The notes under the pieces: model-generated
Told to the model about the DNA's origin: nothing
Seen by the model: the letters and a program-made list of their open reading frames with translations, nothing else
The model's database searches: none
Translations under genes and position numbers: made by a program
Shown here: positions 1,444-49,931 of the stretch, in pieces
How the letters are laid out: every line of letters starts with the position of its first letter
How positions within the stretch are numbered: position 1 is the first letter of the stretch
DNA from: Escherichia coli
GTDB lineage: Bacteria > Pseudomonadota > Gammaproteobacteria > Enterobacterales > Enterobacteriaceae
Assembly (NCBI RefSeq): GCF_041248615.1
Contig: NZ_CP158426.1
Direction: 5' to 3' (one strand)
DNA: 64,000 bases

Positions 1444-2727
1444 ATGACCGCTTCAAATTTGATGGCTTCTAACGCAGTGATCGTGAACGAGGGCAGTGGT
1501 GTTCTTGTTAATGCGATGACTCAAGATTATTCATACGTACTCACAGCAAAACATGTGTTAGCGAAATCAGGTAGTCAAAATATCGTTACTAATCAATATG
1601 GTAACAGTCTTAGAGTGCTTGATGTATTGGTGGGTCAGGAAGAGCATTGCGACTGTGCTGTAATCAAAATTGAATATGTACCAACTGTTGCTCAGCAGTC
1701 CTTCCCTGCAATAGCATTACCCAATTCGGCTTTGCTAAAGTTTGTTGGTTTTCCGGGAACCGAGAGACTAAGCGCTACCCCGCTGAAAATCTATGATGGG
1801 CATGTAACAGATGTAAGGGAGGGGCTGATTAGCTTCACGATAGAAGGCAGTCCCTCAAAAACCGCAATCGATGGAATGTCTGGCGGTGGAATGTATTACA
1901 TAGTTAATGAACATCCCCTCCTTGTTGGTGTAGAATTTGGGATGGACAGTATTCGTCAAGATCTACAATATGGACGTATACAATGTAAAAGTTTAATTGT
2001 TTTTGAAGAGATAATTAATTTAAACAGTGCTGCTCCAATGGTTCCCGCTTATTTGGAGTGTTTTTCACGCTTAAAAGAATATATCTTCGATTTTAATGTT
2101 GTTGATAAAAATAGAGTTCTGAATCTGAAAAACGCATTAAATATTTTTGCAGATGAACTTATAGACAAAGGTATGCCACCACCATTTGAATTAATGTCCA
2201 AATACAAAACTGATTTGTTAGTAGGTCCATATCAAGTTGACGATGTTAAAAATAAAGAATTATGGGTTGCATATTTTGAATTTCTGATAATTTGCGCAAT
2301 TCTTGATAATGTAAGTATTGCCAATAGTTCTTATATAGAAAGTTTAGAGCGGCGTAGGAGAATTCTTTATACTCCGGATGGAAGTAATTGGGTCGGAAAG
2401 CTTGATGTAATCTTAAAAGTTGCTCGAAAGTTATTAGATAAAGATGGCATAGTAATTGTGGCATCTCCAGAAAATGGAGCCGAATTATTACCGGATGATT
2501 TTGAAGTCGATAGGGTTATAAGGAATATTGCGCGAATCGCTAATTCAGGTCCACTTGCTCCTATCGATCAAGTTGAAAAAGAGATGTATAAGAGTTTTGT
2601 ATTAACGCATCTTGAAGGGCTGAGAAAAAAATGTGTTATAAACAAAGAGAGAATGTATGCAGAAGTTGAAGCTGGCTTAGACCAACTTCAGACGTTTAAG
2701 GAAAGCTTTAATGAATTTATTAAATAA
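1444..2727 (+). CDS. Trypsin-like serine peptidase with uncharacterised C-terminal domain
   Basis: ORF track 1423..2727; ATG at 1444 directly after upstream stop (TAA 1440-1442); candidate triad His (LTAKHV), Asp (CDCAVIKI), Ser (GMSGGGMYY); about 240 aa C-terminal extension of unknown fold. Confidence 0.7.
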   Translation: MTASNLMASNAVIVNEGSGVLVNAMTQDYSYVLTAKHVLAKSGSQNIVTNQYGNSLRVLDVLVGQEEHCDCAVIKIEYVPTVAQQSFPAIALPNSALLKFVGFPGTERLSATPLKIYDGHVTDVREGLISFTIEGSPSKTAIDGMSGGGMYYIVNEHPLLVGVEFGMDSIRQDLQYGRIQCKSLIVFEEIINLNSAAPMVPAYLECFSRLKEYIFDFNVVDKNRVLNLKNALNIFADELIDKGMPPPFELMSKYKTDLLVGPYQVDDVKNKELWVAYFEFLIICAILDNVSIANSSYIESLERRRRILYTPDGSNWVGKLDVILKVARKLLDKDGIVIVASPENGAELLPDDFEVDRVIRNIARIANSGPLAPIDQVEKEMYKSFVLTHLEGLRKKCVINKERMYAEVEAGLDQLQTFKESFNEFIK

Positions 2728-3262
2728 AGAATTTGATTTGGAATTTCTTAAATCTAGATTTTCTGATGCAGATTTCTATTTTTTTGTTTCTAATGATGAC
2801 TCATCTTATATTTCATGCGTAGCATGCTATTGTGAGAGCGCTAATTACGTGGTTGCGAATTGGACAGCGATTCAGAATTATTTATCTGCTTACTACCAAC
2901 CGAAGGATGAATTAGCTCTTTGGAATATATATTTAGTTTTCTTTTGTTCCGAAAAATTACCGATTTGGGATAAGTACCTTATAGATAATGATAAGTATTC
3001 TGTCAGAAAATTAATTATTGACGGGTTAACTACTCTGCCAAGTATTTCCGAAACTGTAACTTTTCTGAACAATCATCTGCTAGGCGCAGACCTAGAATTA
3101 ACTGAAATAGAGGAGAAGAAGGAGATAGAGTTATCATTAATTGAGTATATAAGTGGAACTCCTTTAGATTCAAAGGTTGAGTCGAGAGATGAGCGTATGA
3201 GCAGAATTGATAAAATTATTAATCTAGTGAGTTCAAATAAAAATGAAAATAAAAAAAGTTGA
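2711..3262 (+). CDS. Hypothetical protein, 183 aa, middle gene of candidate operon
   Basis: ORF overlaps upstream gene by 17 nt and downstream gene by 20 nt (translational coupling); no recognisable motif. Confidence 0.5.
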   Translation: MNLLNKEFDLEFLKSRFSDADFYFFVSNDDSSYISCVACYCESANYVVANWTAIQNYLSAYYQPKDELALWNIYLVFFCSEKLPIWDKYLIDNDKYSVRKLIIDGLTTLPSISETVTFLNNHLLGADLELTEIEEKKEIELSLIEYISGTPLDSKVESRDERMSRIDKIINLVSSNKNENKKS

Positions 3263-6200: not shown

Positions 6201-6380
6201 ATTGATCTTCTTAGAAGTATTACCGTTAGATTCAACAAACAAATAATAATATCAACACATGACGACAATTTCTTTGGCTTGCTCCAACGTAAAATCCCTT
6301 CGGAAATATTGGGTGCCAAGTTTCTTAAATTGGAGAAATTTGGGGTTGTAGTGCCTGTTGATGATTTAAATAATACATGA
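3243..6380 (+). CDS. SMC/Rad50/RecF-like ABC ATPase with long coiled coil and central CxxC motif
   Basis: N-terminal Walker A YAPNGFGKSSFYDAVEWAI; long K/E/L/Q-rich coiled-coil middle; CPLCHKP near centre; C-terminal signature-like FSAAQLNILSLS, Walker B VIMIDDP, His-switch ISTHD. Confidence 0.8.
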   Translation: MKIKKVEIEGFRAYRFKEDGTFDFTNKDDTPSNFVAIYAPNGFGKSSFYDAVEWAITHNLDRFAGEYNKKNYEQAARSTKEDGVAQKILRNKDVPDNIPTRVTVFTTLPTPFEQSLGTVRSDSRDIRIGENKNKINGYFRKVVLSQDEIDRFLKEAKPQDRYKMFMESFGGEWEKARQELTILLNDNKAVLLNLEKNKNELQEQLDQPVDASTFIQFNKIASELVAEGESLPLVDETTIVNTQHELLEKIITRSHEINFSLNKKKILRDSISEYILKFPDISFRTTQIIEKKNRLEKINKGIEDVGRYKTFQSTLEKLTIEKKKISQSLNFIEELDGLSQEFLSLEFNLESARKKHREISYNYENEKTLLDNLFQTRNQNDADLSSIDKRCLSIRSTLENATVTYSNISNIQNKILNIVSTQTELEHKLNQVRSEYQKNKSELNKVSDLTITAKSLLSSDLSLIDLSSDLLKELNNLSQELNILVLHDQSIHNTQESLSAQMGVHERLIASGLEYLSLWPTNICPLCHKPHDSESSLREQVTNTDVISMLSKENAAKLEISSKRRSELNGKIESIVQKALEIKMSKLEVLSKKVNQQGNEIHREEQHYTALLAEKQSVQNQLNELQKAVAGLTKDELLARLDAELKELEAKKNEVIKNKLTLTKNINVKRTLITELSGAINLLNTQIHEMMSSSNYLKTKAYSEENGLSSEFLKEHYDDKRHFYLKNINGLNFEINNITSQLNDLQKAMIADEMWLDYEEMISEKENFEDYISKSEAVLQSYSSLLKQHFELPKYESLVELKDFLISSLDKETRLYNGLEERLGKYNLLSELLKTAESFVKSIKLQNDINETLGLIEIRKEVDLALTKERNQVIEELRNLIKSFFYEELINSIYKRIDPHPSLKKVVFRPDFDSSDKPGLNIVVSDEKGDMVSPILFFSAAQLNILSLSVFLASALHAKDDNGNVIDVIMIDDPIQSMDSINILSTIDLLRSITVRFNKQIIISTHDDNFFGLLQRKIPSEILGAKFLKLEKFGVVVPVDDLNNT

Positions 6381-21106: not shown

Positions 21107-23032
21107 CTAAAAGTTCAGTAACGAGGGATGATCCTCTTTACCTGCACCTGCACCTGCACCTGCACCTGCACTTGTTGTTGTGTGTTTCTCGTCCGGCTTG
21201 TCAAAAAAGAGATCGGGTTGTGTTGTCGTGATAACTGATGTTGATGACGGTCCGGATGACATTTCTTCCTCGTCAAAATTCAGGGCAATGTTGACTCTTG
21301 CGGCGGTGGCGGCAACAGCGGGCGATACGGCACAGATCGCCAGTTCCCTTTTTTTAACCCTGATGGGAGAAATTAGTGAAGCAGAGGGGAGGGCTTTGGT
21401 GGTGAATATAAAACTGACAAAATCAGGCAGGTTCAGCACCATATTACTGTCGATAAAGAAACGCTCGGCCTGCCTGATGGTGCGTTCACTATCGATAGTC
21501 TCTGTCAGCACCGCATCTGTTTTGGCTTTGCGGACTTCGTCATCGACTAATATGGTGCCTGACATTCTTGCCACCCAGTCAGCGGTATCAGGGTCCATGA
21601 CACGATAAACCAGCTTGAATTTGGCATTCTCCACAACTGCACCCACCACGGCATCGCTTTTCAAATCCGCCGGGCAATCTTTTAAATCGGCAATGGATTG
21701 GTGGTCCATAATAATGTGTACACCTTTATCCCGTGCCGCACCTAAGCCTTCCAGCGCAGGCTTGGATAAATGGTATTTCAGTTCGGAAAGGTAAATAGCA
21801 ATAGGGCGGGGTGTGTGGTTTACCCGATCGCGCCTTTCTGCCAGCTGGTACAGGCGAACCAGCAGCATGCGCTGAGCGGTAATAATTTTGCTGTTGCGCA
21901 TCGAGCCAATCACATAGCAGCAACCACCGTTATCAAATATTGTATTGAGGGAAAATCCTGCCGGTGCATTGATGGCATTGAGTAAGGCCAGCTCCTCAAT
22001 TTTCCCGAAAAAGGCTTTTATCTTATCAGCGATACTTTGGACGTATTCCCCGTTATACACATCCCGAATGGTTGAGGTCGTATTACGGGCGACAAATTGT
22101 GCAGCTATTCGGGCTGCTTTGCGATCGTCAATGCGATAAAAGTCAGACTCTTGTCCTTTCTCTGCCAGACTGAAACCCGCGACAAAAAGTTCTTCCAGTT
22201 CATCAGCGGTGATATCGTTAATCAGGTTTAGCTGGTATGCCTGTTTCCTCAGGTCAATTAGGGCAAAGGATTTCCCTGCATCCTCGCAGGCTTTCCGGTA
22301 AAGGTGTGGGGCCCACTCATCATCTTTGGGGTCCATAACAAATACGCCTTCACCGGCCAAAATACTCTGATAAAGTAATATCCCGGTGGCCACCCCTTTA
22401 CCGGCCCCCGTGGTCCCGATGATATCGGCATGTTGTTTTTGCCAGTCTTTTAACGGCAGGTACATCGGCTGTTTCATTCTGTTCATGCCGATAAAAATAC
22501 CTTTACTCAGGTTAATATAATCCTCCGGGTTATAGTGCAATGTTTCCGGTAGCAGCGATTTCACCGTTCGGACATCAGTACGTAATTCCCTTTCCAGAGT
22601 GGTTTTTCTGACGAACCGACTTTTTACTTTATCGAGTTCAGGTGTTAACACCCTGCGCAGAAGAATATGGAAAACAAAACCGGCTGCGGTAGAGGTAATC
22701 AGTATCAGCCAGGAGAGGACAGTATTGCTGGTGGCTATCTTTATTCGGTATATCCATTGAAATAATTCGTTCACCACGGGCGCTATTGTGCCAAACAAAA
22801 AGCACAGTATGGAAAAAACTATCACCAGCTTTTTCCATAAAGGGGCTTTGAGTCGTTCATCGCTTTTCATCGACGCGAAGAATGGCATGGTCAGCCCTGA
22901 GAATAGCGCCAAAATAGGTTGATGCTGGTGCATAAAAACGAGCAGTCCCAGCATGCCGTCCACTATCGGTGATAGTGAAACGATCAGCTTATTTAACACC
23001 ATAATGCTTCCTTTATCGGCCATTCGCCCCAC
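21107..23032 (-). CDS. Type IV coupling protein (VirD4/TraD/MobB-like)
   Basis: N-terminal TM helices; Walker A GTTGAGKGVATG; 641 aa; C-terminal Gly-Ala repeat. Confidence 0.85.
   Translation of the reverse strand: MGRMADKGSIMVLNKLIVSLSPIVDGMLGLLVFMHQHQPILALFSGLTMPFFASMKSDERLKAPLWKKLVIVFSILCFLFGTIAPVVNELFQWIYRIKIATSNTVLSWLILITSTAAGFVFHILLRRVLTPELDKVKSRFVRKTTLERELRTDVRTVKSLLPETLHYNPEDYINLSKGIFIGMNRMKQPMYLPLKDWQKQHADIIGTTGAGKGVATGILLYQSILAGEGVFVMDPKDDEWAPHLYRKACEDAGKSFALIDLRKQAYQLNLINDITADELEELFVAGFSLAEKGQESDFYRIDDRKAARIAAQFVARNTTSTIRDVYNGEYVQSIADKIKAFFGKIEELALLNAINAPAGFSLNTIFDNGGCCYVIGSMRNSKIITAQRMLLVRLYQLAERRDRVNHTPRPIAIYLSELKYHLSKPALEGLGAARDKGVHIIMDHQSIADLKDCPADLKSDAVVGAVVENAKFKLVYRVMDPDTADWVARMSGTILVDDEVRKAKTDAVLTETIDSERTIRQAERFFIDSNMVLNLPDFVSFIFTTKALPSASLISPIRVKKRELAICAVSPAVAATAARVNIALNFDEEEMSSGPSSTSVITTTQPDLFFDKPDEKHTTTSAGAGAGAGAGKEDHPSLLNF
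21137..21166. repeat. Hexanucleotide tandem repeat (CACCTG)x5 within coupling protein C-terminus
   Basis: Read directly; encodes (Ala-Gly)n on the minus strand; in-frame repeat. Confidence 0.85.
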
Positions 23033-24063: not shown

Positions 24064-24366
24064 TTATCCTCTGAGCCTACCAAATCTGGACAGGATTTTA
24101 TTCACCGCCTCTGGGTCGGCACTGGCACATTCTCCGAGGAAAGCTTTTCTGGCATTCAGTGTATGACCGGGTAAAAATCCGTGTTTATTCTTTTTGACGA
24201 TATTAAAGAAAGTTTTTTCAGCTGAATGGCACTCACTCCCTCCACTGTTTCCGGTCGCTTTCCCGTACATACAAAGCACGACTTCGCATGGGTCAGAGGC
24301 GAAGCAATAAACAGGGAGCACAATGGCAATGCACAGCATTACCGTCGCAATGGAGGCGTATTTCAT
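24064..24366 (-). CDS. Small secreted Cys-containing protein (T4SS-associated)
   Basis: N-terminal signal-peptide-like hydrophobic segment MKYASIATVMLCIAIVLPVYCFA. Confidence 0.5.
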   Translation of the reverse strand: MKYASIATVMLCIAIVLPVYCFASDPCEVVLCMYGKATGNSGGSECHSAEKTFFNIVKKNKHGFLPGHTLNARKAFLGECASADPEAVNKILSRFGRLRG

Positions 24367-24410: not shown

Positions 24411-24806
24411 TTAATGTGAAAAATAAATATAGGTATCGCTACACGTCAGGCACTGAGTTGCAGGTTGATATTCAATAACACCATTTGCGCCATGCTGGCG
24501 AAGCCAGCTTGTTGCAGTAAAGAATGCTGTGCCTGATGGTGCAGCAACAACAATACGCGTCGAATGCGCAACTGCGTAAAATACGTCGGGGGTCCAAAGT
24601 GTCTCGTTAAACTGCGTTGAGTGAACGGACAATAACCACTTCCCATTAACGATTGGGGAAGGATTAATAACGGGGGTGTCATTCCATTGCGATAAATTGA
24701 TATTCACTGACTCGCCCGATTTATCCCATTCAACAGATACCGGTGGGGGTGGTGACGAACAGCCGGTAAGCACCATTAAAAATAACAGTATATTGATGGT
24801 TTTCAT
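24411..24806 (-). CDS. Lipoprotein, 131 aa
   Basis: Signal peptide with lipobox LTGCSS; start overlaps virB11 stop by 1 nt. Confidence 0.6.
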   Translation of the reverse strand: MKTINILLFLMVLTGCSSPPPPVSVEWDKSGESVNINLSQWNDTPVINPSPIVNGKWLLSVHSTQFNETLWTPDVFYAVAHSTRIVVAAPSGTAFFTATSWLRQHGANGVIEYQPATQCLTCSDTYIYFSH

Positions 24807-25849
24807 TATGCTTTCATCTCCTCGAAGAAGGCATTACGGTGCAGTGGCCGGAAATAGATATCATTCATTCGGCGCACGTTGCCGTCTAAATCAATACTGA
24901 CAATAACATCCAGACTGTCCAGCACTTTGCGTAACATAAACGTGTAGGGCAGCCGGGCGCATTGTGGGTTTTCATAACAGCGAGTAATAAAACCGTCTAC
25001 CGCTTCTATTGCTGAACCCGCATGCAGGGAAGTCATACTGCCTTCATGGCCGGAGCCGGTTATTTTGAGAAAATCCCAGGCTTCACCACCGCGCACTTCG
25101 GTTAACAATATACGGTCGGGGTTCATGCGATAATTCCAGCGCAGAAGACTGGCTGGCGTCACAATCGAGCCTTTTTCATCTGCTGATTCGGACGGATAGA
25201 AGAGGTGGACATAGTTTTTATGAACAAAAAAGGTGATTTCCGGATTATCTTCAATGGTCGTAATACGCAAATGGCGAGGAATAAAACCAATCAGCATCTT
25301 CATGTAGGTTGTTTTCCCGGTACCGGTTTCCCCGGCCACCGCGATAGTTTTACCGTACTCCACGCACTTCTCCATAAAGCGCGGGATATCTTTGGCGGTA
25401 TACAGGCTCAACAATTCCTGATCGTGCGTCTGGGTGGTTTCTGAGCCCGTCACCCTGTTATAAAAACCGGCGTCGATATAGCTCTGGTGGGGAATTTGTA
25501 CCTGTGACGGCTTTCGGATAGTAATGGAGACGGTGTTGCGCTCACAGGCCGGAGGGACAATAACCTGACAACGTTCACCGGATTCCAGCGTGGCTGACAG
25601 CCCCGGTTTGATATCTTCAATATTGTCGCAGTGATGCTTTGCCAGGCATCTGGCGAAGTTGTAGCACCCCTCATAATCCAGCGAAACACTGTGCAGCTCC
25701 CAGATACCATTAATTTTGGTAAATAGCTCGCCCGGGCGGTTGACGGCGATTTCTGTTAGTCCAGGATGAGCAATAAAATCGCCAAAAAATCGCTGTGTAT
25801 AGCGATCGAGAGAGATGTTTTTCATGTGATATCCTTGTATCGGATACAT
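24806..25849 (-). CDS. virB11: VirB11-family T4SS ATPase
   Basis: Walker A VAGETGTGKTT; size and position at end of virB operon. Confidence 0.9.
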   Translation of the reverse strand: MYPIQGYHMKNISLDRYTQRFFGDFIAHPGLTEIAVNRPGELFTKINGIWELHSVSLDYEGCYNFARCLAKHHCDNIEDIKPGLSATLESGERCQVIVPPACERNTVSITIRKPSQVQIPHQSYIDAGFYNRVTGSETTQTHDQELLSLYTAKDIPRFMEKCVEYGKTIAVAGETGTGKTTYMKMLIGFIPRHLRITTIEDNPEITFFVHKNYVHLFYPSESADEKGSIVTPASLLRWNYRMNPDRILLTEVRGGEAWDFLKITGSGHEGSMTSLHAGSAIEAVDGFITRCYENPQCARLPYTFMLRKVLDSLDVIVSIDLDGNVRRMNDIYFRPLHRNAFFEEMKA

Positions 25850-25862: not shown

Positions 25863-26870
25863 ATGTCGAAGACGAAAGTACTGTTCGCTTATTGCCATGA
25901 ACTCGGGCGCTGTTTGTCCATTGATGAAGCGCGAATGGAATTTTTTTCCAGAAAGCCGGAAGAAAGGAAGCGGTTCACTTTTTCATGTAGCGATCGCAAC
26001 TGTGATGTCACCATTAGCGGTGTTAACTATCACGTCAAAGCTGAAGATGGTGAGAAATTCAAGGCTGCGCACTTCCGTTCACCTCATCCTCACAAGTTCG
26101 GATGTGAATGGCTCGAATTCACCGAGGATGCGGATCAGGACCGGCGTCCAGACGAGTCAGAGGCTGATTTCACAGAACGAAAAGCAAAGCAAAAGCTGAC
26201 GGACTATATCAACTGCTTTGACCCTTCAATAGATGATCCTGATGGCGAACCATCCGATCCCGTGAAGCTTGTTACGCCTGTTCACACAAGAAAAACTGTC
26301 GGGGATGATGATAAAACGGGTACAAATGAAGAGCCCCGCTGGAGTCGCTACACGCGAACCAACCAGCTTCAGCGACTTATCGACACATGGCAGGAAGCGA
26401 AAGAAACGCTGCCTCAGGATGAGTTCCGGGCGTTGAGACTCAGGATCATGCACCATGATCAGGTCTATCTACATGAATATATAACGCATATACAGCGTGG
26501 ATTGGCTAATCCGTATTCGGGCGTCATCTATGGTGGTGGGACCCTAATGCATCGGTATGGTCGGGGTTTTCTGATTAATTTCTTTGATAAACATGAGGGG
26601 AAGCCTGTTCGCCTGTATGTCAGTAAAGATCTGATGGCGAAAGGACGGTTTGGTCATTATATCGATGAGATTCTGGACACTAAAAACGTCAGATATTTCC
26701 GTATATTTTTACTCAATCCGGTTGTTTCCGAACGGGAAAACAGCACAGGAAAAAGCGTTATCAACCTTGAAATATCAAAGCTGCGTCAACTGGCTATTTA
26801 CTACGAACTGAACTCCAGCAGAGAAGATGAATCTTCATCGGTGGAGACGGAGGGGGAAAGTCCGGCGTAG
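25863..26870 (+). CDS. Hypothetical protein, 335 aa, Cys/His-rich N-terminus, antisense to T4SS operon
   Basis: Long ORF on opposite strand between virB11 and virB10; N-terminal Cys/His cluster (CHELGRC, CSDRNC, HPHKFGC); acidic C-terminus. Confidence 0.5.
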   Translation: MSKTKVLFAYCHELGRCLSIDEARMEFFSRKPEERKRFTFSCSDRNCDVTISGVNYHVKAEDGEKFKAAHFRSPHPHKFGCEWLEFTEDADQDRRPDESEADFTERKAKQKLTDYINCFDPSIDDPDGEPSDPVKLVTPVHTRKTVGDDDKTGTNEEPRWSRYTRTNQLQRLIDTWQEAKETLPQDEFRALRLRIMHHDQVYLHEYITHIQRGLANPYSGVIYGGGTLMHRYGRGFLINFFDKHEGKPVRLYVSKDLMAKGRFGHYIDEILDTKNVRYFRIFLLNPVVSERENSTGKSVINLEISKLRQLAIYYELNSSREDESSSVETEGESPA

Positions 26871-27187
26871 CGGGCTAATGTTGTCACAAGAATGAGTATA
26901 TCGGTGACGTCAGGCAGCGATATCTGCTTATGTGCCAGCCGGATATCGTCCGGGGAAAAAGGCGGTGCATCCAAAGGGCCTTCACTGATGGTGATACAGA
27001 ACGGTTGCTCTTCTCCTGAGTCAATACTGAGTTCTATCAATGCGCCCCCGGCACGATAGCATGTCATGACTATTCTTCTGATTCCGGTAAGGTGTGACAG
27101 TAAGTCGTTGACGACAGCGTTGCTGAAATCGTCCCTTACGATGACGTCTGTCGCCGTAACACCAAACAAAAACTTTCGATTACTCAC
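26801..27187 (-). CDS. Hypothetical protein, 128 aa, coupled to virB10
   Basis: Start overlaps virB10 stop by 8 nt; 3' end overlaps the convergent 335-aa ORF by 70 nt, so one of the two calls may be wrong. Confidence 0.35.
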   Translation of the reverse strand: MSNRKFLFGVTATDVIVRDDFSNAVVNDLLSHLTGIRRIVMTCYRAGGALIELSIDSGEEQPFCITISEGPLDAPPFSPDDIRLAHKQISLPDVTDILILVTTLARYAGLSPSVSTDEDSSSLLEFSS

Positions 27188-28430
27188 TCTTCATCCTCAG
27201 CGTGTAGATGCCTGAAAAATCAATATCCTGCCCTGTGACCAGGTTGATGATTTCACCCTGATTTTTGTAGAGCGTCGGTGGGATATTAATGCTGTTTTCC
27301 AGCGTGGTACGTGCCATATCCGCCATAGCCTGACGGCTGTTTTCTGTATAGTCGGTATTCCGATCTTTCTGACCGGCGCTGTTGGATGCCCATGCCCCAA
27401 TATCAGGGATCATACCGACCAGTAATGCACCTCCAAATCGCTCCCTGAAATGCGAGTCTATCCAGCCATCAACGCCAGCCTCGCCCAGTTCTCCGGCAGC
27501 ATTCGTATCGACCAGCGGAATATCAAGGAAAGGGGGCTGGCGGGTACGCAGTTTCGTGATGATGATGAATGCGCGTCCCTGTCCATGCGTCATTCCTGTT
27601 TCTGCACCAGTCTGGTACATCCCCGTGGCGGTGGTCCCTTTTTCTATCAGCTTTGTATTACCGCTGGCGCTCCAGATGTCTTCGGCGATCGTGCAGCGGA
27701 TTTTTCCAGCCCGATCTGAGACAAAACGGTAATCCAGTGAGCAGGGAATAGCGGTATTTTCCGGCACGTACAGATCGGGATTATAAGGAATTCGCCGGAC
27801 CGCTGTCGGGGACTGTTCCGGCTGTGGCGACGAGGTGTTTAGCGGCTGACCGGTATCAGAATATTGTGTCTCTGACGGCTGTCTGGCTGAGGATGCCTGC
27901 GTCATTTCCTGATACCGGGTCCGTACCGGATTTCGTACCGCTGAACCTGAACCCTCCCGGCGCACCAGAAAACGGGCTTTATCTAAGTCGGGCAGAGCCT
28001 CCGATCCGTTGGGTGTCGTACTACCAGGGTTGTTGTCCGCCGGTTCTGGTGTTTTCGCGTCGATATAGTGCGTACCCAGATCGGTACGCTGTCGAGAATC
28101 GGTCCGATCTGTCGGGGCCACAGTTTCCTGAGGCTTTTCTTTACCTGGCTGCCAAAGAAGATTGTGGTATATCCAGTTACCCCCCCACGCCAGTGCAATC
28201 AGGGCAACGGCAGCGAATGCCAGAAAAGCGGTGGCTTTCCCCTGCTGGCGCTTTTTCAGTTTATTGACAGCCGGCTGTATTGGATCGTTATTGTCATCAT
28301 CCTGCCAGGTGTGAAGCACAGCTTCACGCTTTGCGCGGGCCTCGCGCTCAAGCGCAGCAATATCATCATCCTTCTGTGTCGGACAGGACCTGGATTCATC
28401 TGGCACAGGATGCAGATGTTCGTCATTCAT
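27180..28430 (-). CDS. virB10: VirB10/TrbI-family T4SS protein
   Basis: N-terminal TM anchor, Pro-rich linker, conserved C-terminal domain; position in operon. Confidence 0.85.
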   Translation of the reverse strand: MNDEHLHPVPDESRSCPTQKDDDIAALEREARAKREAVLHTWQDDDNNDPIQPAVNKLKKRQQGKATAFLAFAAVALIALAWGGNWIYHNLLWQPGKEKPQETVAPTDRTDSRQRTDLGTHYIDAKTPEPADNNPGSTTPNGSEALPDLDKARFLVRREGSGSAVRNPVRTRYQEMTQASSARQPSETQYSDTGQPLNTSSPQPEQSPTAVRRIPYNPDLYVPENTAIPCSLDYRFVSDRAGKIRCTIAEDIWSASGNTKLIEKGTTATGMYQTGAETGMTHGQGRAFIIITKLRTRQPPFLDIPLVDTNAAGELGEAGVDGWIDSHFRERFGGALLVGMIPDIGAWASNSAGQKDRNTDYTENSRQAMADMARTTLENSINIPPTLYKNQGEIINLVTGQDIDFSGIYTLRMKSE

Positions 28431-28449: not shown

Positions 28450-29349
28450 TTAATTGGTTGCGGTTTTTACCACTCGCTCAACTTGCGGGGAGACTGTGGC
28501 ACCATCTGCGACCTGAACCCTGCCGAAACCACGATTTTCCAGGCCGACCACAGCGCCACCGGAACGGAGGACCAGACGGGGGGTAACTTCCTGAATAACC
28601 AGTACGGTGAAGTTGCCTTTCCTGCGGACACTGCTGTTAACCACATGCTCCTGGCCGTTTAGCTCTTTTGTCAAAGAGGGAATGGATTTGGCTGGGGAGA
28701 AGCCCACGAACGTAAAGCGACCATCGTCATAGGCGAAGTCCGGAACGATACGTGTGCTATTGCTCCCCGGATATTTGAGATAGTCCCAGTTTCGTGGCGT
28801 CTGCGCGGCGTTAAGAGCCTGCTGGATATCGGCCTGCTGTTGTTTCTGCTCCCGTTCCCGCGCTTTGGTTGTGACTTCACGGCCCGATTTTTCGTGTGCT
28901 TCATCGGGATAGCGATAACTCACCTGAAAAGCAGGCTGCTGCGATGATTTTTCATCGATGACGTTTAGCTCGACGTTATACAGCCGCCGAGTGGTAACGA
29001 TTAGCATGTTGGTATGCCAGTCGTGACTGTTGGGAGGAATGACCACCTGCGCTGTATTACCGTCCACTCCGGGGGCACCCTGAATCAGGGCTACCGGGCG
29101 GATACTGACCCGGTTTGCGTCTGTTGTGGCTTCCCATGCGTCCTCAAAACCTGGTTTAGCACTGATAACCGCTTCGTCATTGTCAAAGATGAGCGTGGTT
29201 ACGAAACCGGGTCGGGTATTGACGACAGTGACGTTAAACGGGTTATAGACAACCTGCTGGAGACGGGCGTCGTAGCGGCTTGCTTGTGGTATTGCAGCAC
29301 CCCAGGCTATACCGCACATCGCCAGTGCGAAAAGGATGATAATTTTCAT
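28450..29349 (-). CDS. virB9: VirB9/TrbG-family T4SS protein
   Basis: Signal peptide; size and synteny; 1-nt overlap with virB8. Confidence 0.85.
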   Translation of the reverse strand: MKIIILFALAMCGIAWGAAIPQASRYDARLQQVVYNPFNVTVVNTRPGFVTTLIFDNDEAVISAKPGFEDAWEATTDANRVSIRPVALIQGAPGVDGNTAQVVIPPNSHDWHTNMLIVTTRRLYNVELNVIDEKSSQQPAFQVSYRYPDEAHEKSGREVTTKAREREQKQQQADIQQALNAAQTPRNWDYLKYPGSNSTRIVPDFAYDDGRFTFVGFSPAKSIPSLTKELNGQEHVVNSSVRRKGNFTVLVIQEVTPRLVLRSGGAVVGLENRGFGRVQVADGATVSPQVERVVKTATN

Positions 29350-30032
29350 TATTCAACTCCTCTGATTTCACGATCTGCCTGCCAACTTGTCACCGTAAAA
29401 CCGAACGGGTTAACTTCCCGCTCTGTATCGCTCATTTCCTTACTTGGGTCGGAGTGGAATGTCAGGTGGGCATCCCAGTATTCTGTACGCGTACTGCTAT
29501 CAGCGAGGCGGCGGATAGTTTTTTTGTAACGGAGGGTGGCGACTTTATCGGGGGCAGTGCCTTCGGTGATCTGATTAGACAGGATGTCGATATGTACGGT
29601 GTGGGCCTCATTCTGGTACACCTTATCCGGGGCGTCTTTTCCTGAATAAAGTGCCAGATAATCATCATTAACCTGAGGGCTGTTATAGACCTGTACCGTT
29701 GAATAATCGTCCTGTAGGGCAGGGTAAATGTAACGTTCACGCACTCTGACGTAACTTGAGGTCATCGCCTTCTGATAAGCTTCTTCCGCTGTCAGACTCG
29801 TTTGTGACGCTCGGGTGACGTGTTCCAACCGTCCGGTATGATTATCAACAGCATACAGCTCAATAACTGTCTGTTTCAGCGGTAATATCAGCACCACAGT
29901 GGTGAGTGCCAGTATGGCAATGAGTAAGCCCGCGCCACCAACCATAAATCCCGCCTTCGTGGCGCGTTTGTCCCGCTCAATCATTTTCTGCTCAAAGGTG
30001 CGGGAATCAGCAATGATTGACTGTTCACTCAT
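29349..30032 (-). CDS. virB8: VirB8-family T4SS protein
   Basis: Single N-terminal TM segment; size and synteny. Confidence 0.8.
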   Translation of the reverse strand: MSEQSIIADSRTFEQKMIERDKRATKAGFMVGGAGLLIAILALTTVVLILPLKQTVIELYAVDNHTGRLEHVTRASQTSLTAEEAYQKAMTSSYVRVRERYIYPALQDDYSTVQVYNSPQVNDDYLALYSGKDAPDKVYQNEAHTVHIDILSNQITEGTAPDKVATLRYKKTIRRLADSSTRTEYWDAHLTFHSDPSKEMSDTEREVNPFGFTVTSWQADREIRGVE

Positions 30033-30162
30033 GATTGTTTAACTCCGCCATCATCTGAGGCGTGTTTACCGGGATGCCATTCCCACTAAAGGCCAGGGGA
30101 TGGGGTGACTGTGCACAGCCGTAAAGCGCGCACAGTAAAATCAGCGCAATCAAGCGTTTCAT
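30025..30162 (-). CDS. virB7: VirB7-like small lipoprotein, 45 aa (not in ORF track)
   Basis: Hand-translated MKRLIALILLCALYGCAQSPHPLAFSGNGIPVNTPQMMAELNNHE; lipobox LYGC; stop overlaps virB8 start. Confidence 0.5.
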   Translation of the reverse strand: MKRLIALILLCALYGCAQSPHPLAFSGNGIPVNTPQMMAELNNHE

Positions 30163-30245
30163 GGGATGTTTCCTCAGTGGGTTGGATAGAGGGTAGTGTT
30201 AGCGCCGGGGGGATTGACGGAAATAGTATGCAAGGGATGACAAGT

Positions 30246-31310
30246 TTAACGATGAAATTTCTGAACGGTTGTTTCTCTTGATTTTGCCAGCCGTCGGGCC
30301 TCGTTCCTGGCGATCATTTGCTCAATGGCATACTTACGTGCCTGAGCAGCTCTGTATCCCGGGCCGCTGCCGGGTTTATCTGTACTGGCATCTCTCCATC
30401 CCTGAAGATTGTCCTGAATTGCGCGGTTTGTCTGCTTCCCGGCTCCTGCGGCTAATTTCCCTGCACCAAACGCCGCTGCGCCTATACCCACGGCGGACAG
30501 TCCCTGCATGGAGACAGTCGCTCCCGCCCCGGCTAGTGCTCCGGCCAGTTTTGCGGAAAGGTATACCATTATTGCCGCGCAGACCCCGGCGAGACAGACC
30601 TGAGCGCCTAGCTCCACAATATTAGATTGTGCAGATATTTGTGTGGCAATATCTAAGCGGGAGTTTAAATAATTAACGACCACTCGTAGCGACAATGCAG
30701 AAAACAGAACCGTTAATATGGCTGCGAAAATATTTTGCAGCCAGTTGTTAAACATGGGACGTAAAAAGCCATACATGAGACAAAAGATGAAAACGGGGGC
30801 TGTGATGCTGAGCAGCAAAACCATGACCTCTGCGATCATTGCAACAAAGGCTGTAATAGTCATTAAAACGAATATCCCAAGCCACACATAAAATTGAGCT
30901 GTGATGCCCTCGTCTTTTATGTACGTTGAATTATCCATGTCGTGTAACGTTTTGCCTAATACCTTCGCTTTATCCCATAAGCTATCCAGTAGTTGCCATA
31001 TATTATCGTTGCCGGAAAAGCCGTCTTTTAAGCCATTGATAGCGTCAATGACCCCGTCGAGATAACCGCTGACATTGGCCACAAAGGACAGGATGATGGC
31101 CATTCTTATGATGTCCCACATGACGTCCTCCATGGGTGCGGACAACTTACCTGCCAGGCTCTGGTATCCACGCCACATGATATAAAGTGTCGCTGACGTT
31201 GCCGCCAGTCCCAGCATCATGGCGGAGTATGACATCATCAGTCCCTTTGTTGCGTCGGTGACTCCCCCTATCAGGTGTTTTTCAACACCGATAAATACAC
31301 CACCAGGCAT
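30246..31310 (-). CDS. virB6: VirB6/TrbL-family polytopic membrane protein
   Basis: Multiple hydrophobic helices; Gly/Ala-rich C-terminal region; synteny. Confidence 0.8.
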   Translation of the reverse strand: MPGGVFIGVEKHLIGGVTDATKGLMMSYSAMMLGLAATSATLYIMWRGYQSLAGKLSAPMEDVMWDIIRMAIILSFVANVSGYLDGVIDAINGLKDGFSGNDNIWQLLDSLWDKAKVLGKTLHDMDNSTYIKDEGITAQFYVWLGIFVLMTITAFVAMIAEVMVLLLSITAPVFIFCLMYGFLRPMFNNWLQNIFAAILTVLFSALSLRVVVNYLNSRLDIATQISAQSNIVELGAQVCLAGVCAAIMVYLSAKLAGALAGAGATVSMQGLSAVGIGAAAFGAGKLAAGAGKQTNRAIQDNLQGWRDASTDKPGSGPGYRAAQARKYAIEQMIARNEARRLAKSRETTVQKFHR

Positions 31311-31320: not shown

Positions 31321-31548
31321 CTATGAATTCAGGTTGGGAGTGGGGGCATTTAACTGTTGAATCTGAAAATGAGCTTCATTGGCATTTTTACAGTTTTCAG
31401 AGGCATCGCCGGTTTTCAGGCATTTTTCATATACTGTTTTCAGCTCATCGGGATGATCTTTGTACCACTGGGTAGTTTTGGTTTCGTCTCTGCAGCCGCA
31501 AATGATGAGGAATAAAATGGACAGGAACGAAAGGGTTAATAAACGCAT
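31321..31548 (-). CDS. Small lipoprotein, possible entry-exclusion protein
   Basis: MRLLTLSFLSILFLIICGC signal/lipobox; located between virB5 and virB6; internal start of track ORF 31321..31608. Confidence 0.5.
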   Translation of the reverse strand: MRLLTLSFLSILFLIICGCRDETKTTQWYKDHPDELKTVYEKCLKTGDASENCKNANEAHFQIQQLNAPTPNLNS

Positions 31549-31559: not shown

Positions 31560-32267
31560 TTAACGGTTTAAATCGGAGGTTGGTGCAGTTAACTGCTGCT
31601 GGTTCCACTGTTTGAGACGCTCATCCTCCAGCACTTTCCCGCGTTTTTCTGCCGCCTTCACACTCATTTCCCATTGATCAGTGAGCGTGTTCAGCATCAC
31701 TGATTTCAACTGAATACTGTTGGCAAGGTCCAGCGACTCCTTTGAGTCTTTAGAGAGTGCAATCCGGTTTGAAAGATTATTGATCTCACCCAATGTTTGG
31801 CTGACCTGATCCTGGATCTCGTCAGTCTGCTCAAACTGAATTGCCTTATTGATAACCTGTTGTTTGCAGATATCGGCATAGCTTCCGGACTGCGCCGCGT
31901 TGCACGTATCGAAAACCCGGTACTTTGCGTATAGCGCATCGAACTGCCCGGCGATGCCACCAGAAAGTAGCAGGTCGTTGAGTGTCTGGCCCGGCTTACG
32001 CAGTTTTTCCAGATCTGATTTAAGACTCTTCGCCTGATCAACGAAATCAACAATATTCCGTACACCGGTGGCCGTTGCTAACTGGTCTTTATATGCCTGA
32101 ATTTGGCTCTCATAATGCTGCGCTGTTTGTATCCAGCGTTGTGCCTCTTTCAGCCATTCGAGCTCACGTAGTGGGTCAGCATCCACCAGAACAGGGATAC
32201 CTGCGTGTGCCATCGGGCTGATGATCACACACGCAATAATTAATGCATGAAAACGCCGTTTCATCAT
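31560..32267 (-). CDS. virB5: VirB5/TrbJ-family minor pilus protein
   Basis: Signal peptide MKRRFHALIIACVIISPMAHA; coiled-coil content; synteny; start chosen downstream of virB4 stop. Confidence 0.7.
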   Translation of the reverse strand: MMKRRFHALIIACVIISPMAHAGIPVLVDADPLRELEWLKEAQRWIQTAQHYESQIQAYKDQLATATGVRNIVDFVDQAKSLKSDLEKLRKPGQTLNDLLLSGGIAGQFDALYAKYRVFDTCNAAQSGSYADICKQQVINKAIQFEQTDEIQDQVSQTLGEINNLSNRIALSKDSKESLDLANSIQLKSVMLNTLTDQWEMSVKAAEKRGKVLEDERLKQWNQQQLTAPTSDLNR

Positions 32268-32284
32268 GAATCTCCTGTGGATTT

Positions 32285-35029
32285 TCAGAGTGCCTGAGCC
32301 AGGTAAGTATCCAGCCATTCATGGGGCTGCATTCCTTCCCGGTAGAGAGAGTCGAAGATTTCCAGGTTGTCGGCGCTGCCGCTCATGACTTTTGTGTACC
32401 TGCCGATCCCGGAAAGATCGAGCGTCACACGTGCAGCAAAACGCTTTATGTCGCCACGTCTAAATTGATTTTTTACCACTACGTACTGACGGGCCTGAGG
32501 ATCCAGGGCTTTCACGACGTCGAACACTTCCGGCTCAAACTTCATTCCGTCGACATAGTGTTCCCTGTCAGCACTGGGGTTGGCTGCCAGGATCTGCGTG
32601 CCGCACTGCTCAATCACGGCAGGCGCAATTTCATCCCTGATGATCTCCGCCGGGGACTGTGTTCCAACAACCAGCATCCCGTTTAGCTTGCGGATAGTTT
32701 TCAGTCGGTTATAGGCGAAATCCTTAAAAACCGGATCCCGTAGCCATTTCCAGAACTCATCCATGAAGATAACCAGTCGACGTCCGTCGAGTAGGCTGGT
32801 AATGCGGTACAGCAGATAAAAGGAGATCGGTGCGCAGATATTCGTATCGTCAAGAAACTCTGTGCCGTCAATGCCAAAGTTATCGCAGCGACTGATATCG
32901 AAGGTGTCTGATGCGTTATCAAACACCCAGCCAAACTCGCCACCCTGCGCCCACTGTGACAGGCGAATACTCAGGCCATTCTCCTGGGCTTCTCGGGTCG
33001 CAGGCTCCGGAAGATTCTCCAGTAAACGGGTGATCCCATGAATACGGTACTGTGGTTCATTACCGATCACCGCCAGTATGGCATCATTTAGACGTCGTTC
33101 ATTGCGGGGCGTGATGGTCGCACCGTTACGCGTACACAGCAGTTTCATCAGCTGACTGATAAAACTGATATTGCGTTTCGTGGGCGATAGCGAAAATGGG
33201 TTCCACCCGGTGGGCTCTCCATGTGTAATACGGTAATAACGGCCTTGCAATGCCCGGATATTCATTTCAGCGCCACGATCCTTATCCAGATAAACGGTTG
33301 TCAGTCGTTTGGTTTTTGCGTCGGGAGAAAAACTCTCCGTACGGCTATATTTCTGCTGCATGTTTTCCAGAAACGTCATGAGCATGGTTTTACCCGAACC
33401 GTTGGTACCGAGAATGCAGGTACTGGCTGGATTCTTCTCGTTGAATTCATCCTTATCCGCCAGCGTATTGTGAAGGTTCAGATAGTATCCATCCCCTGAT
33501 GGGGCACGCAGTAAGGCCATCGCATCCCCCCAGGGCGCATTATCGCGCTTGCCGGGATAGAAATTGTGTAGCGAAGCCAGCTCGACAAAATTCTGACTGC
33601 TCAGCTCACCCTTGCGGGGCCGCAAATGATAATTGCCAGGCAGTTGCGCCATATACCCGGCTGAAAGAGAAAGCGCGGCGGGAACCGATATAATGCCGAG
33701 GTTGTTCAGGGCATTGCTGATTTCGCTGGTATCGGCTACCAGACTATCCAGCGTCTGGGAAAACACCATGATGGAAAAATGGTGTTTTCCATACGCAATT
33801 TTTCCCGATGTCAGCAGGTCAAGCGCCACATCCAGATCCAGCCGCTGAGACACCGCATCATCATCTGAACTCATTAACAGACGTCGGGTGCGTTTGATGG
33901 CCTTCCGGGCTTCTTCCCGTGACATGCAGGTGTAGGACTGTGTGATGACATAATCACAGGGGGCATAAAGCAGAGAATCCATCATTCCAGTTGCTGTTTC
34001 TTCAGGGAACTCTTTAACTTCCAGACCCCGGAAATACTGGGTGCCGCCGGTATGGTTTATCTGTCCAGACTCCCCGGAGAAAAACAGCGCCGCCGATCCC
34101 ATGACGGAATATGCAGGAGCACGGGTGACGCGGATCCTGCGCCATTGGTGCGTCAAGAGATACTCGTAAAAGGATAACTGGGAGGAGAATACCGCCTGTT
34201 CTTCGCTGAAAGTACCAAGAGAGTGTGCGGCGTAGCGTGACAGAGCGGTATCGAGGGTACCTTTAATTTCCAGCATCCCCTGCAACACACCGTCAAGCTC
34301 TTTCAGTTTCTGGCCGTCTTTCATACGCCGGTGTCCGGCTTTTTCCAGACTGGCAAAAGGGCGGTAGCAGGCAGTCAGGAACAAGCGGTTACGGCGAAAC
34401 GGGTTAGCCTCCAGCGAGGCATAATACAGACGGCTGACTTCATCAGCGTAAGGGTTGCCGGATACCTTATGTAGCGAATCGGTAAATGGCTCCCTTACGT
34501 TATGGATATAGAAGGTGACCGGCATCCCCTCGAAAGAGCGGATAATTCCGTGCAACTGGTTACGGTCAATATTGAGCGTTTCTTCTGATTCACAATCGAA
34601 CGGAGTGCCCGTCAGTTCCCAGGTACAGTAGAGGTCACTATTGGGTGAGCGGACGACATGTTGATGAATATGCGATGAATACGGAATGTATTTCCTGAGC
34701 GTGGCACTCTGATTCAATTTCATGACGTTGAGAAACTCCGTGATATCAACAGCATCATGCTCAATGGGCATAAATGCTGTTGCGCCAAATAGACGGTTTG
34801 CCGCAGGTTTTCCTCTTGCCCTGAGCCAGACGGCTATCAGGCTGAACCGCATGGGTTCATTCTTGGTAAGCGATTTCATCAGCAGAAATTCAATCGGGAG
34901 TAGGGCGAGGAAAGCGACGGAGGTCCAGACAGCAATGATGATGGTGATACCCGTGACAGCCAGTAGAGGCACCATCGGCACTCCCCATAGTGCCGCCGGA
35001 CGTCTCATTGCCTTAAGCAGCTTTGCCAT
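32285..35029 (-). CDS. virB4: VirB3-VirB4 fusion T4SS ATPase
   Basis: 914 aa; N-terminal TM VirB3-like segment; large ATPase body; synteny. Confidence 0.9.
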   Translation of the reverse strand: MAKLLKAMRRPAALWGVPMVPLLAVTGITIIIAVWTSVAFLALLPIEFLLMKSLTKNEPMRFSLIAVWLRARGKPAANRLFGATAFMPIEHDAVDITEFLNVMKLNQSATLRKYIPYSSHIHQHVVRSPNSDLYCTWELTGTPFDCESEETLNIDRNQLHGIIRSFEGMPVTFYIHNVREPFTDSLHKVSGNPYADEVSRLYYASLEANPFRRNRLFLTACYRPFASLEKAGHRRMKDGQKLKELDGVLQGMLEIKGTLDTALSRYAAHSLGTFSEEQAVFSSQLSFYEYLLTHQWRRIRVTRAPAYSVMGSAALFFSGESGQINHTGGTQYFRGLEVKEFPEETATGMMDSLLYAPCDYVITQSYTCMSREEARKAIKRTRRLLMSSDDDAVSQRLDLDVALDLLTSGKIAYGKHHFSIMVFSQTLDSLVADTSEISNALNNLGIISVPAALSLSAGYMAQLPGNYHLRPRKGELSSQNFVELASLHNFYPGKRDNAPWGDAMALLRAPSGDGYYLNLHNTLADKDEFNEKNPASTCILGTNGSGKTMLMTFLENMQQKYSRTESFSPDAKTKRLTTVYLDKDRGAEMNIRALQGRYYRITHGEPTGWNPFSLSPTKRNISFISQLMKLLCTRNGATITPRNERRLNDAILAVIGNEPQYRIHGITRLLENLPEPATREAQENGLSIRLSQWAQGGEFGWVFDNASDTFDISRCDNFGIDGTEFLDDTNICAPISFYLLYRITSLLDGRRLVIFMDEFWKWLRDPVFKDFAYNRLKTIRKLNGMLVVGTQSPAEIIRDEIAPAVIEQCGTQILAANPSADREHYVDGMKFEPEVFDVVKALDPQARQYVVVKNQFRRGDIKRFAARVTLDLSGIGRYTKVMSGSADNLEIFDSLYREGMQPHEWLDTYLAQAL

Positions 35030-35039: not shown

Positions 35040-35333
35040 TCAGCTCATCAGCAGTGCGCCGATTTCACTGCCTCCACCAATCAGGATGCCGCCAATGATG
35101 ATGTAGGCGCACTGGGACAGGCTTTCGCCTTTCCAGAGTGTCTTGTAACCTACCCAGATCACGGCCACGGTAATGGTGATGGCCGCCAGGCCATTAAGGC
35201 CGGTGGCGACTTTTTCCATCACGGTATTTGCGCGTTGAAAGCCATCGGCAAAAACCGGAGGTACAGAACAAACGATGAGTGCAAATGCGGAAACATGACT
35301 GAAAGCGGCCTTAAGTTTGCAGCAAAGTGTCAT
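35040..35333 (-). CDS. virB2: VirB2-family pilin
   Basis: 97 aa with two hydrophobic segments; position after virB1. Confidence 0.7.
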   Translation of the reverse strand: MTLCCKLKAAFSHVSAFALIVCSVPPVFADGFQRANTVMEKVATGLNGLAAITITVAVIWVGYKTLWKGESLSQCAYIIIGGILIGGGSEIGALLMS

Positions 35334-36088
35334 TATTCTTTCTCCTCACGGGGTGACAGGGAGAGGCTCCGGCGCAATGACGGCGTAGAGATCTTTTCTA
35401 TGGCAATTTTCTTCTGGCGGAATTTTGAGGGGACGCCACGAACCACGCCCTTCGGCCAGATCACGCAGGGACGTAACTGGTCACCTGCAGGCGTAGGCTT
35501 CAGGAACGGCGGGGGTGTCAATTTATCCTCGTGGGTTCCGGGTACGGCATAGTGGGGAGCAGCAGCGTAACCGATTCGTTGCACATAGCTGGTTCCGGAA
35601 AAAGCCGCTTCCGGCTGTTCTCCGGTACGGAAATTGCCGGAGTAGTAGCAACTCAGTGCTCTTTTCAGCGAGCCGCCGCGTCGGTAACAGTCGTTGAGGA
35701 TGTGTTCGAAAACAGACAAATTGGTACAGGGATCAAGCAGCTCAGAGGCTGTCACACCGTAATGATGGAAATTGGTGCTGGTAATTTGCATCAGCCCCAC
35801 AGAATAACGGCGGCTCTGCGCCATAAGGCGACCTATGATTCGCTCGGCTCTTTCCCGGCTGGTGGGCTGATGAGAAATGATTTTATTGTGACCGAAGGTG
35901 CCTGAGCCCTTTGGGATAATTTCGGCGATCGCATAAGGGTTAAAATTGGACTCCACCCTTACGACGTCGAGTGCTGTGGACGGATGAATGCTGGTGGCAC
36001 ACTGCATGGCCACCGCCAGAAAGGCAGATGTGGAAAGCATAGTAGCCTCGGGAATGCGGGCAGCGTACATAGCCAAAGAACCATGCAT
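35333..36088 (-). CDS. virB1: VirB1-family lytic transglycosylase (SLT domain)
   Basis: SLT motifs VESNFNPYA and GLMQIT; first gene of operon; exact start uncertain. Confidence 0.8.
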   Translation of the reverse strand: MHGSLAMYAARIPEATMLSTSAFLAVAMQCATSIHPSTALDVVRVESNFNPYAIAEIIPKGSGTFGHNKIISHQPTSRERAERIIGRLMAQSRRYSVGLMQITSTNFHHYGVTASELLDPCTNLSVFEHILNDCYRRGGSLKRALSCYYSGNFRTGEQPEAAFSGTSYVQRIGYAAAPHYAVPGTHEDKLTPPPFLKPTPAGDQLRPCVIWPKGVVRGVPSKFRQKKIAIEKISTPSLRRSLSLSPREEKE

Positions 36089-48422: not shown

Positions 48423-49694
48423 CTAGCCAGCTTGAAGCGTCGTTTTTCCTCTCCCCAGTATGTAGGGCGGTACATAGGATTTGCGGCAAGTATCCAGATA
48501 ATCCGACCACCACTGCATCATTGCCTTTCTTGCTTCCAGATGCTCTGCTCTGTGAATATATGCCTGGCGTACGGAGTTACGTTCCTGGTGGCTCATTTGC
48601 CGTTCAACAGCATCCTGTGACCATATACTGGATTCCATAAGGGCACTGCATGCCATTGTCCTGAAACCGTGACCACAGATTTCCATTTTCGTATCCCAGC
48701 CCATCAGGCGTAGCGCCTTGTTCACCGTATTTTCACACATGGGTTTATACGGATTATGGTCCCCGGGGAACACGAGTGCATTATCTCCTGAGATATCCTT
48801 AATCTTTTTCAAGATCGCGATCGACTGTTGTGAGAGGGGTACGATATGAGGCCTGCGCATTTTGGCACCACGACCAGAGTAACGCACGCCTTCAATAGCT
48901 TCGCGCGTGGCGGGTATTGTCCAGACCTGGTTTCCGAAATCAATTTCATGCCAGCGGGCAAAACGCAATTCACTCGAGCGAATGAACAGATGCAGTGTTA
49001 GCAGGATGGCAAGGCGAGTGAGTTCACGGCACTGCTGAAAACTCTCAATGCTCTCAAGCAGTTCTGGAAGACGCTCCAGTGGTAGAGCGGGGTAGTGTCG
49101 TTTTACTGGTGGAGCCGTCACTCCGTCAAGGTTTGCTGCCGGATTAAAATCGATTAATCCATGATGCACGGCGTAGCGCATGATATTCCGGAGGTGCTGG
49201 CGTGTACGGGATGCAACTTCCAGGAGACCCTTTTCCTCAATTCCTTTTAATAAAGTGATGAAATGGCGGGGTTTCAGTTCTGAAACTGACATGGTGCCAA
49301 TGACTGGGAAGATATGATTATTCATGCTGGCGAGCAAACGGTCGGCGGTGTTCTCTGACCATTTTTTATTGCTCTTGTGCCATGCAAGTGCAACGTTTCT
49401 AAACACTTTCTTTGGCATGCGAGAACTGCGTTCGGCTGCTCGCTGCTCTGCTGGATTGATGTTCAGTACCAGCATTTTGCGAATACCTTCACGTTGACTA
49501 CGGGCGTCTGAGAGGGAGATGACTGGGTAGGCACCGAGTGCAATACGTGATTCTTTACCCTTAATACGGTACTTGAGATACCAGTGACGTGAACCGCCAG
49601 GTTTGACCAAGAGATACAGACCGTGGGAATCGGAAACTTTAAAGGGTTTATCAGATGGTTTGAGACTGCGGATTTTGGTGTCGGTAAGAGACAT
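48423..49694 (-). CDS. int: P4-type tyrosine integrase (tRNA-adjacent)
   Basis: 423 aa; N-terminal arm-binding-like region, C-terminal catalytic domain; 161 nt from tRNA-Asn 3' end. Confidence 0.9.
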   Translation of the reverse strand: MSLTDTKIRSLKPSDKPFKVSDSHGLYLLVKPGGSRHWYLKYRIKGKESRIALGAYPVISLSDARSQREGIRKMLVLNINPAEQRAAERSSRMPKKVFRNVALAWHKSNKKWSENTADRLLASMNNHIFPVIGTMSVSELKPRHFITLLKGIEEKGLLEVASRTRQHLRNIMRYAVHHGLIDFNPAANLDGVTAPPVKRHYPALPLERLPELLESIESFQQCRELTRLAILLTLHLFIRSSELRFARWHEIDFGNQVWTIPATREAIEGVRYSGRGAKMRRPHIVPLSQQSIAILKKIKDISGDNALVFPGDHNPYKPMCENTVNKALRLMGWDTKMEICGHGFRTMACSALMESSIWSQDAVERQMSHQERNSVRQAYIHRAEHLEARKAMMQWWSDYLDTCRKSYVPPYILGRGKTTLQAG

Positions 49695-49855: not shown

Positions 49856-49931
49856 TGGCTCCTCTGACTGGACTCGAACCAGTGACATACGGATTAACAG
49901 TCCGCCGTTCTACCGACTGAACTACAGAGGA
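49856..49931 (-). tRNA. asnT: tRNA-Asn (anticodon GUU)
   Basis: Reverse complement reads TCCTCTGTAGTTCAGTCGGTAGAACGGCGGACTGTTAATCCGTATGTCACTGGTTCGAGTCCAGTCAGAGGAGCCA; matches recalled E. coli tRNA-Asn; next to mtfA as at the E. coli asnT locus. Confidence 0.95.

Follow-up and report, generated by a model that had tools for sequence, protein, structure and literature searches.

A 45-codon open reading frame in the virB6-virB8 slot of an Escherichia coli virB operon probably encodes a VirB7-type lipoprotein

A small open reading frame in a complete virB operon

Examination of a stretch of 64,000 nucleotides of Escherichia coli DNA (contig NZ_CP158426.1; hereafter the window) revealed a complete virB operon of the IncX/pCRY/ICEKp type on the minus strand, with a small open reading frame (ORF) between virB6 and virB8 (Table 1). 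The genes follow each other in the order VirB1, VirB2, VirB3-VirB4, VirB5, EexN, VirB6, small ORF, VirB8, VirB9, VirB10, VirB11, Cag12-family protein, TrbM/KikA and coupling protein. Between virB10 and virB11 this co-linear arrangement is broken by an oppositely oriented ORF of 335 aa (25863-26870, +), which gave no Pfam or PADLOC match, is named hypothetical in RefSeq and has a counterpart in an 85%-identical ICE. Three lipoproteins are encoded by the operon, namely EexN, the 45-aa product of the small ORF and the Cag12-family protein.

The product of the small ORF is MKRLIALILLCALYGCAQSPHPLAFSGNGIPVNTPQMMAELNNHE, and no in-frame start was found upstream of the ATG at 30162. An earlier note on this DNA had described a 45-aa minus-strand ORF with a signal peptide and an LYGC lipobox whose stop overlaps the virB8 start, and both the ORF and the overlap, of 8 nt, are present as it had described them. 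It had also called the ORF unlisted, which holds for the ORF track supplied to its author but not for RefSeq, where the exact ORF is annotated as WP_172408797.1 under the name 'hypothetical protein'. From the overlap (ATGAGTGA) we infer that translation of the small ORF is coupled to that of virB8; the same start/stop layout is seen in traN/traE of R46 and in related loci. The 83-nt gap that follows virB6 contains no minus-strand promoter-like or terminator-like site, which fits co-transcription of the small ORF with the operon.

Since a tRNA-Asn gene lies beside a P4-type integrase, the region is apparently an integrative conjugative element. Genes for two porin-like proteins and an MFS transporter are carried as cargo near these two features, and no ORFs of yersiniabactin size were found within the 64-kb window. 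A four-gene Lamassu-type anti-phage defence locus at 357-6380 (+), recognised by PADLOC (LmuA 7.6e-125, a second LmuA model 1.2e-122, LmuC 1.8e-44, LmuB 1.6e-269), is possibly carried by the same mobile element as cargo. E. coli NRZ14408 has the region on its chromosome at 100% identity, and among 5426 complete E. coli genomes the region occurs in only 8.

Table 1. Positions of the small ORF, its predicted elements and the surrounding genes in the window
Feature	Position	Strand	Remarks
coupling protein	21107-23032	-	
TrbM/KikA	24064-24366	-	
Cag12-family protein, signal peptide and LTGC lipobox	24411-24806	-	PF13117, 5.7e-19
virB11	24806-25849	-	PF00437, 1.4e-20
virB10	27180-28430	-	PF03743, 2.3e-41
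virB9, predicted partner of the lipoprotein via its C-terminal beta-sandwich	28450-29349	-	PF03524, 1.3e-43
virB8	29349-30032	-	PF04335, 2.1e-55
45-aa prolipoprotein gene, probable VirB7/TraN/PilX7-type subunit	30025-30162	-	ATG start, 45 codons and TGA
Overlap of small ORF and virB8, 8 nt (ATGAGTGA)	30025-30032	-	virB8 start codon inside the end of the small ORF
P31-V32-N33-T34, counterpart of TraN PVNK and predicted to bind VirB9	30061-30072	-	P and N invariant; V or I
Signal peptide, codons 1-15 (MKRLIALILLCALYG); lipobox L13-Y14-G15 before Cys16	30118-30162	-	PS51257 rule passed; L13 and C16 invariant
Shine-Dalgarno GAGGAA	30170-30175	-	7 nt 5' of the small-ORF ATG, read from the sequence
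virB6	30246-31310	-	PF04610, 1.2e-45
EexN-family entry-exclusion lipoprotein	31321-31548	-	NF033894, 2.6e-21
virB5	31560-32318 (ORF)	-	Pfam, RefSeq
fused virB3-virB4	32285-35029	-	
virB2	35040-35333	-	
virB1	35333-36088	-	
P4-type integrase	48423-49694	-	adjoins tRNA-Asn
tRNA-Asn	49856-49931	-	likely attachment end of the element

Occurrence and selection in related operons

The slot between virB6 and virB8 was inspected in 12 related loci: the 85%-identical E. coli ICE, pCRY of Yersinia pestis, a plasmid of a Plautia symbiont, pYAC_2 of Y. pseudotuberculosis, MOBC/MOBP plasmids of Klebsiella, E. coli and Citrobacter, IncX2, IncX3 and IncX6 plasmids, and the IncN plasmid R46, parent of pKM101. 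An ORF of 42-48 aa with a lipobox was found there in all 12, usually overlapping the virB8 start, so that every related operon examined has a small lipoprotein ORF at the equivalent position, including R46, whose operon has the same gene order and whose slot ORF is the annotated TraN. The ORFs of pCRY and pMET1 (the ORF9 family of pMET1, pCRY, HPI-ECOR31 and ICEKp1) belong to the same family and are 77.8% identical to the 45-aa protein, as do the slot ORFs of IncX2, IncX3 and IncX6 at 33-49% identity. Compared with the ORF9 family, the copy studied here is a divergent allele, with Tyr at position -2 of the lipobox, and lies in the chromosome on a tRNA-Asn element.

A megablast search of plasmids with the region returned only two records; its DNA is thus not close to any plasmid, and a search at the protein level was needed. 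Tblastn with the 45-aa peptide recovered homologues in 317 plasmid records, and seven clusters of a protein collection matched it at 73-93% identity, the nearest at 93%. A codon comparison with three homologues of equal length gave dN/dS of 0.09-0.28, and the substitutions pile up at third positions of the minus-strand frame (e.g. 3/4/11). On these grounds, and because homologues occupy the same slot of every related operon inspected, the 45-codon ORF is a real gene under purifying selection. Two antisense ORFs, 29899-30042 (+) and 30105-30281 (+), were rejected as candidates, the substitutions being concentrated at the third positions of the minus-strand frame.

That the ORF arose by chance in the virB6-virB8 spacer and is untranslated is scarcely credible in view of this selection, of a good Shine-Dalgarno sequence combined with the start/stop overlap, and of IncX plasmids retaining the frame, the Cys and PVN at an identity as low as 33-38%. 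What speaks for such an origin is that the ORF is very short, that several public annotations omit it, and that a permissive lipobox rule (PROSITE PS51257) is passed, at some start, by 17 of the 603 window ORFs of at least 30 aa (about 3%), which makes the rule weak evidence when taken alone.

Annotation of the family is uneven. One relative of the 45-aa protein is annotated as 'putative periplasmic lipoprotein', and the small ORF is intact yet unannotated in E. coli A38 (NZ_CP028738; L014, 1438-1576), in pCRY (L005, 2501-2638) and in the IncX6, IncX2 and IncX3 loci (L009, L012 and L013, respectively), the status of plasmids being taken from the PLSDB gene table, which is known to be incomplete and from which the original records may differ. 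As the ORF is annotated in some records and omitted in others, the corresponding type IV secretion systems (T4SSs) look as if they were without VirB7.

Two of the inspected loci showed irregularities. In the C. freundii plasmid CP068026 (L010, 2501-3028) the VirB7-like ORF and virB8 are joined in one fused reading frame, reflecting either a frameshift or a sequencing error of that record. In the Plautia stali symbiont plasmid AP012552 (L006, 3318-4204) two ORFs annotated as hypothetical share virB9 between them, and virB10 and virB11 are apparently absent ahead of mobC, which points to a T4SS in decay with its small lipoprotein ORF still intact.

Lipobox, PVN motif and predicted contact with VirB9

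The N-terminus of the 45-aa protein consists of K2/R3, an uncharged hydrophobic core and the lipobox L13-Y14-G15-C16, the codon of Cys16 being 30115-30117 (-); the predicted mature form of the 45-aa precursor is a 30-aa lipopeptide beginning with this Cys. The lipobox was compared with three patterns: as coded here, it satisfies PS51257 and fails the stricter G+LPPv2 and DOLOP patterns, owing to Tyr at -2. By the PS51257 rule a site of the signal-peptidase-II type is present, the Cys of which does not vary within the family. Most homologues have the canonical L-[SAT]-G-C, the Tyr at -2 of this allele being unusual. Such a residue could disable the lipobox and leave the product unlipidated, mis-processed and possibly defective, a reading with which the failure of the two stricter patterns, the predominance of Ser, Ala or Thr at -2 in homologues and the rarity of the region among complete E. 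coli genomes would agree. We regard it as very unlikely, as PS51257 as coded allows Tyr at -2, other intact homologues have Phe or Asn there, strain A38 has the same Tyr allele in a copy that diverged independently and is 97% identical, and the rest of the small ORF is under purifying selection.

Alignment of 17 homologous sequences showed Met1, Lys2, Leu13 (lipobox -3), Cys16, Pro31 and Asn33 to be invariant, Gly15 to be conserved in at least 90% and position 32 to be Val or Ile. VirB7 precursors are 45-65 aa long and have both signal peptide and lipobox Cys, processing removes 15-20 residues, and a short extended region of the protein binds the C-terminal domain of VirB9; conservation is very poor save for a PVNK motif, in which Val and Asn are the most conserved residues (Souza et al. 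2011, PMC3093366). The 45-aa protein agrees with this description (PMC3093366) in its size, its lipobox Cys, the position of its gene between virB6 and virB8 and its PVNK-type motif.

Among the closest known counterparts is TraN, the VirB7 homologue of IncN pKM101/R46 (2OFQ, 3JQO; PF20898), which is encoded in the same slot (eex-virB6-[small ORF]-virB8) and likewise overlaps virB8. Its precursor has 48 aa against 45, with 34 aa against 30 from the Cys onwards, and in both proteins the lipobox Cys is followed by 14-16 residues of Pro-rich linker and then by P-V-N-[T/K]. MAFFT placed Cys on Cys and PVNT on the PVNK of TraN, the motif starting 15 residues past the Cys in the 45-aa protein and 17 in TraN. 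The two differ in the fourth residue of the motif, which is Lys in TraN and Thr or Ser in the 45-aa family, and in the C-terminal tail PQ[IM]MAELNxHE, which the pCRY/ICE clade conserves and TraN does not have. Within that clade the tail, PQ[IM]MAELN[NS]HE (codons 35-45; 30025-30060, -), is more conserved than the linker, with dN of 0.05-0.12 versus 0.22-0.47.

Profile and sequence searches gave a faint link to characterised VirB7 proteins. Phmmer with the single 45-aa protein against PDB sequences returned nothing, and Pfam and NCBIfam contained no significant match at E values up to 10: the NCBIfam model LvhB7 (NF041529) reached 14.4 bits against a cut-off of 70 bits, over residues 1-20 only, that is, the signal peptide. 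Pfam PF20898 (P_T4SS_TraN, gathering threshold 27 bits) did not match the 45-aa protein at E values up to 10, and 2 of 17 relatives reached only E 0.048, TraN itself scoring 33.4 bits; the protein is not filed in this family because it falls below the family threshold. The best match of the family profile in the PDB was TrwH, the VirB7 of IncW R388 (7o3j_C, E 0.0026; cryo-EM structures 7O3J and 8RT4-8), in an alignment spanning the signal peptide, the lipobox Cys and ePVN, all other matches aligning the signal peptide only. This match is marginal and disappears with the mature part alone: a profile of the mature part found neither TrwH nor TraN in the PDB, so that the TrwH match leans partly on the signal peptide, and this shows that in sequence searches the mature region by itself carries too little signal. 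The sole return of the mature-only profile, a PINT match in an antifreeze protein, was dismissed as chance. Alignment of the family with a TraN alignment by hhalign was in register, with 65% probability and E 6e-5. The VirB7-type label thus rests on function, position and motif, the sequence link being statistically weak.

A contact with VirB9 was modelled with AlphaFold2 on an artificial fusion of the mature peptide, a (G4S)6 linker and the operon's own VirB9 C-terminal domain, cut at the equivalent of TraO residue 160, with a shallow alignment of 11 paired rows, each row joining a mature peptide to the VirB9 domain of the same operon. In the native fusion the three successive ten-residue blocks of the peptide had pLDDT values of 66, 87 and 65, the highest being that of residues 11-20 with the PVN segment; a beta-bridge formed at Ile15-Pro16 of the peptide, residues 20-30 were helical, and pLDDT was under 40 throughout the linker and close to 90 in the VirB9 domain. 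In a control in which one fixed permutation was applied to the peptide columns of all rows, the values fell to 37, 36 and 41 and secondary structure was absent. The modelled VirB9 domain matches TraO (2ofq_A, TM 0.80; 3jqo_B), TrwF, VirB9 of Xanthomonas and CagX. Judged from pLDDT and secondary structure, the model lends indirect support to a docking of the PVN segment onto VirB9 that is specific to its sequence. The tail, conserved, modelled as a helix and having no equivalent in TraN, hints at a possible extra contact.

Proposed role and implications

We propose that the 45-aa ORF supplies a conjugative T4SS of the P type (IncX/pCRY/ICEKp-like) with its VirB7-type lipoprotein, and assign a probability of roughly 0.85 to this reading together with the following mechanism. 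The small ORF would be co-transcribed with the virB operon, its translation coupled to that of virB8, and the precursor would be exported by Sec. Lgt would diacylglycerylate Cys16, signal peptidase II would cut between Gly15 and Cys16, and Lnt would N-acylate the product, which, having Ala and not Asp at +2, would be sorted by Lol to the inner leaflet of the outer membrane. The mature lipopeptide of 30 residues would present a Pro-rich linker, I-P-V-N-T and a short tail, PQMMAELNNHE, that is conserved and takes helical form in the model. Its PVN region would dock on the C-terminal beta-sandwich of VirB9, as TraN does on TraO in pKM101, where the Val inserts between the TraO sheets and the Asn hydrogen-bonds to the main chain, and the docked lipopeptide would tether and stabilise the VirB9/VirB10 outer-membrane ring. 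The identity proposed in the earlier note, a VirB7-like protein, is thus supported by the SPII-type site, the invariant Cys, the conserved slot that in R46 holds TraN, and a P-[VI]-N that matches PVNK.

The presence of a lipoprotein of the Cag12 family in the same operon means that the outer-membrane lipoprotein complement exceeds the 45-aa ORF. The Cag12 family (PF13117) includes CagT, which is regarded as the VirB7 counterpart of Helicobacter pylori. The Cag12-family protein could accordingly fill the VirB7 role, leaving the 45-aa product a genuine small lipoprotein of another kind, e.g. an accessory, exclusion or regulatory peptide; the PF13117 match with its LTGC lipobox and the want of a significant match of the 45-aa protein to curated VirB7/TraN models would be in keeping with this. 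We nevertheless find this division of roles unlikely, since the slot of the 45-aa ORF is identical to that of TraN, its PVN motif is invariant, TrwH is its best PDB match, it aligns in register with TraN and its AlphaFold confidence beside the VirB9 domain depends on the order of the peptide sequence. The Cag12-family protein is a different one: it has 131 aa and a folded domain, its gene follows virB11, and its sequence shows no relation to the 45-aa ORF.

Under the VirB7-type reading of the small ORF, two lipoproteins might go into the outer-membrane complex of pCRY/IncX/ICEKp-type machines, a minimal VirB7, whose C-terminal helix would contact a further partner, and the Cag12-family protein. 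This idea is speculative and we hold it with low confidence; if true, such a two-lipoprotein machine would correspond, in a simple conjugative form, to the multi-lipoprotein outer-membrane core of the H. pylori Cag system.

A VirB7-equivalent role for the family of the small ORF is already in the literature. According to the portion of Soler Bistué et al. 2008 (PMC2262945) considered here, pMET1, pCRY, HPI-ECOR31 and ICEKp1 have no homologue of published VirB7 proteins, and the ORF9 family was proposed as the VirB7 equivalent from synteny; neither a lipobox nor a PVN motif is mentioned for ORF9 in that portion. What is added here is the lipobox and PVN signature, the bridge to TraN and TrwH by way of the IncX slot ORFs, the selection analysis and the AlphaFold control.

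The general understanding of T4SSs is unchanged by this finding, whose value is one of annotation: for a T4SS family that is clinically widespread, that of the IncX, pCRY/pMET1 and ICEKp/HPI-type elements, which move resistance and virulence genes, many records name the ORF 'hypothetical' or omit it. Cys16, Val32 and Asn33 provide handles on the assembly of the outer-membrane complex in IncX/pCRY/ICEKp-type elements.
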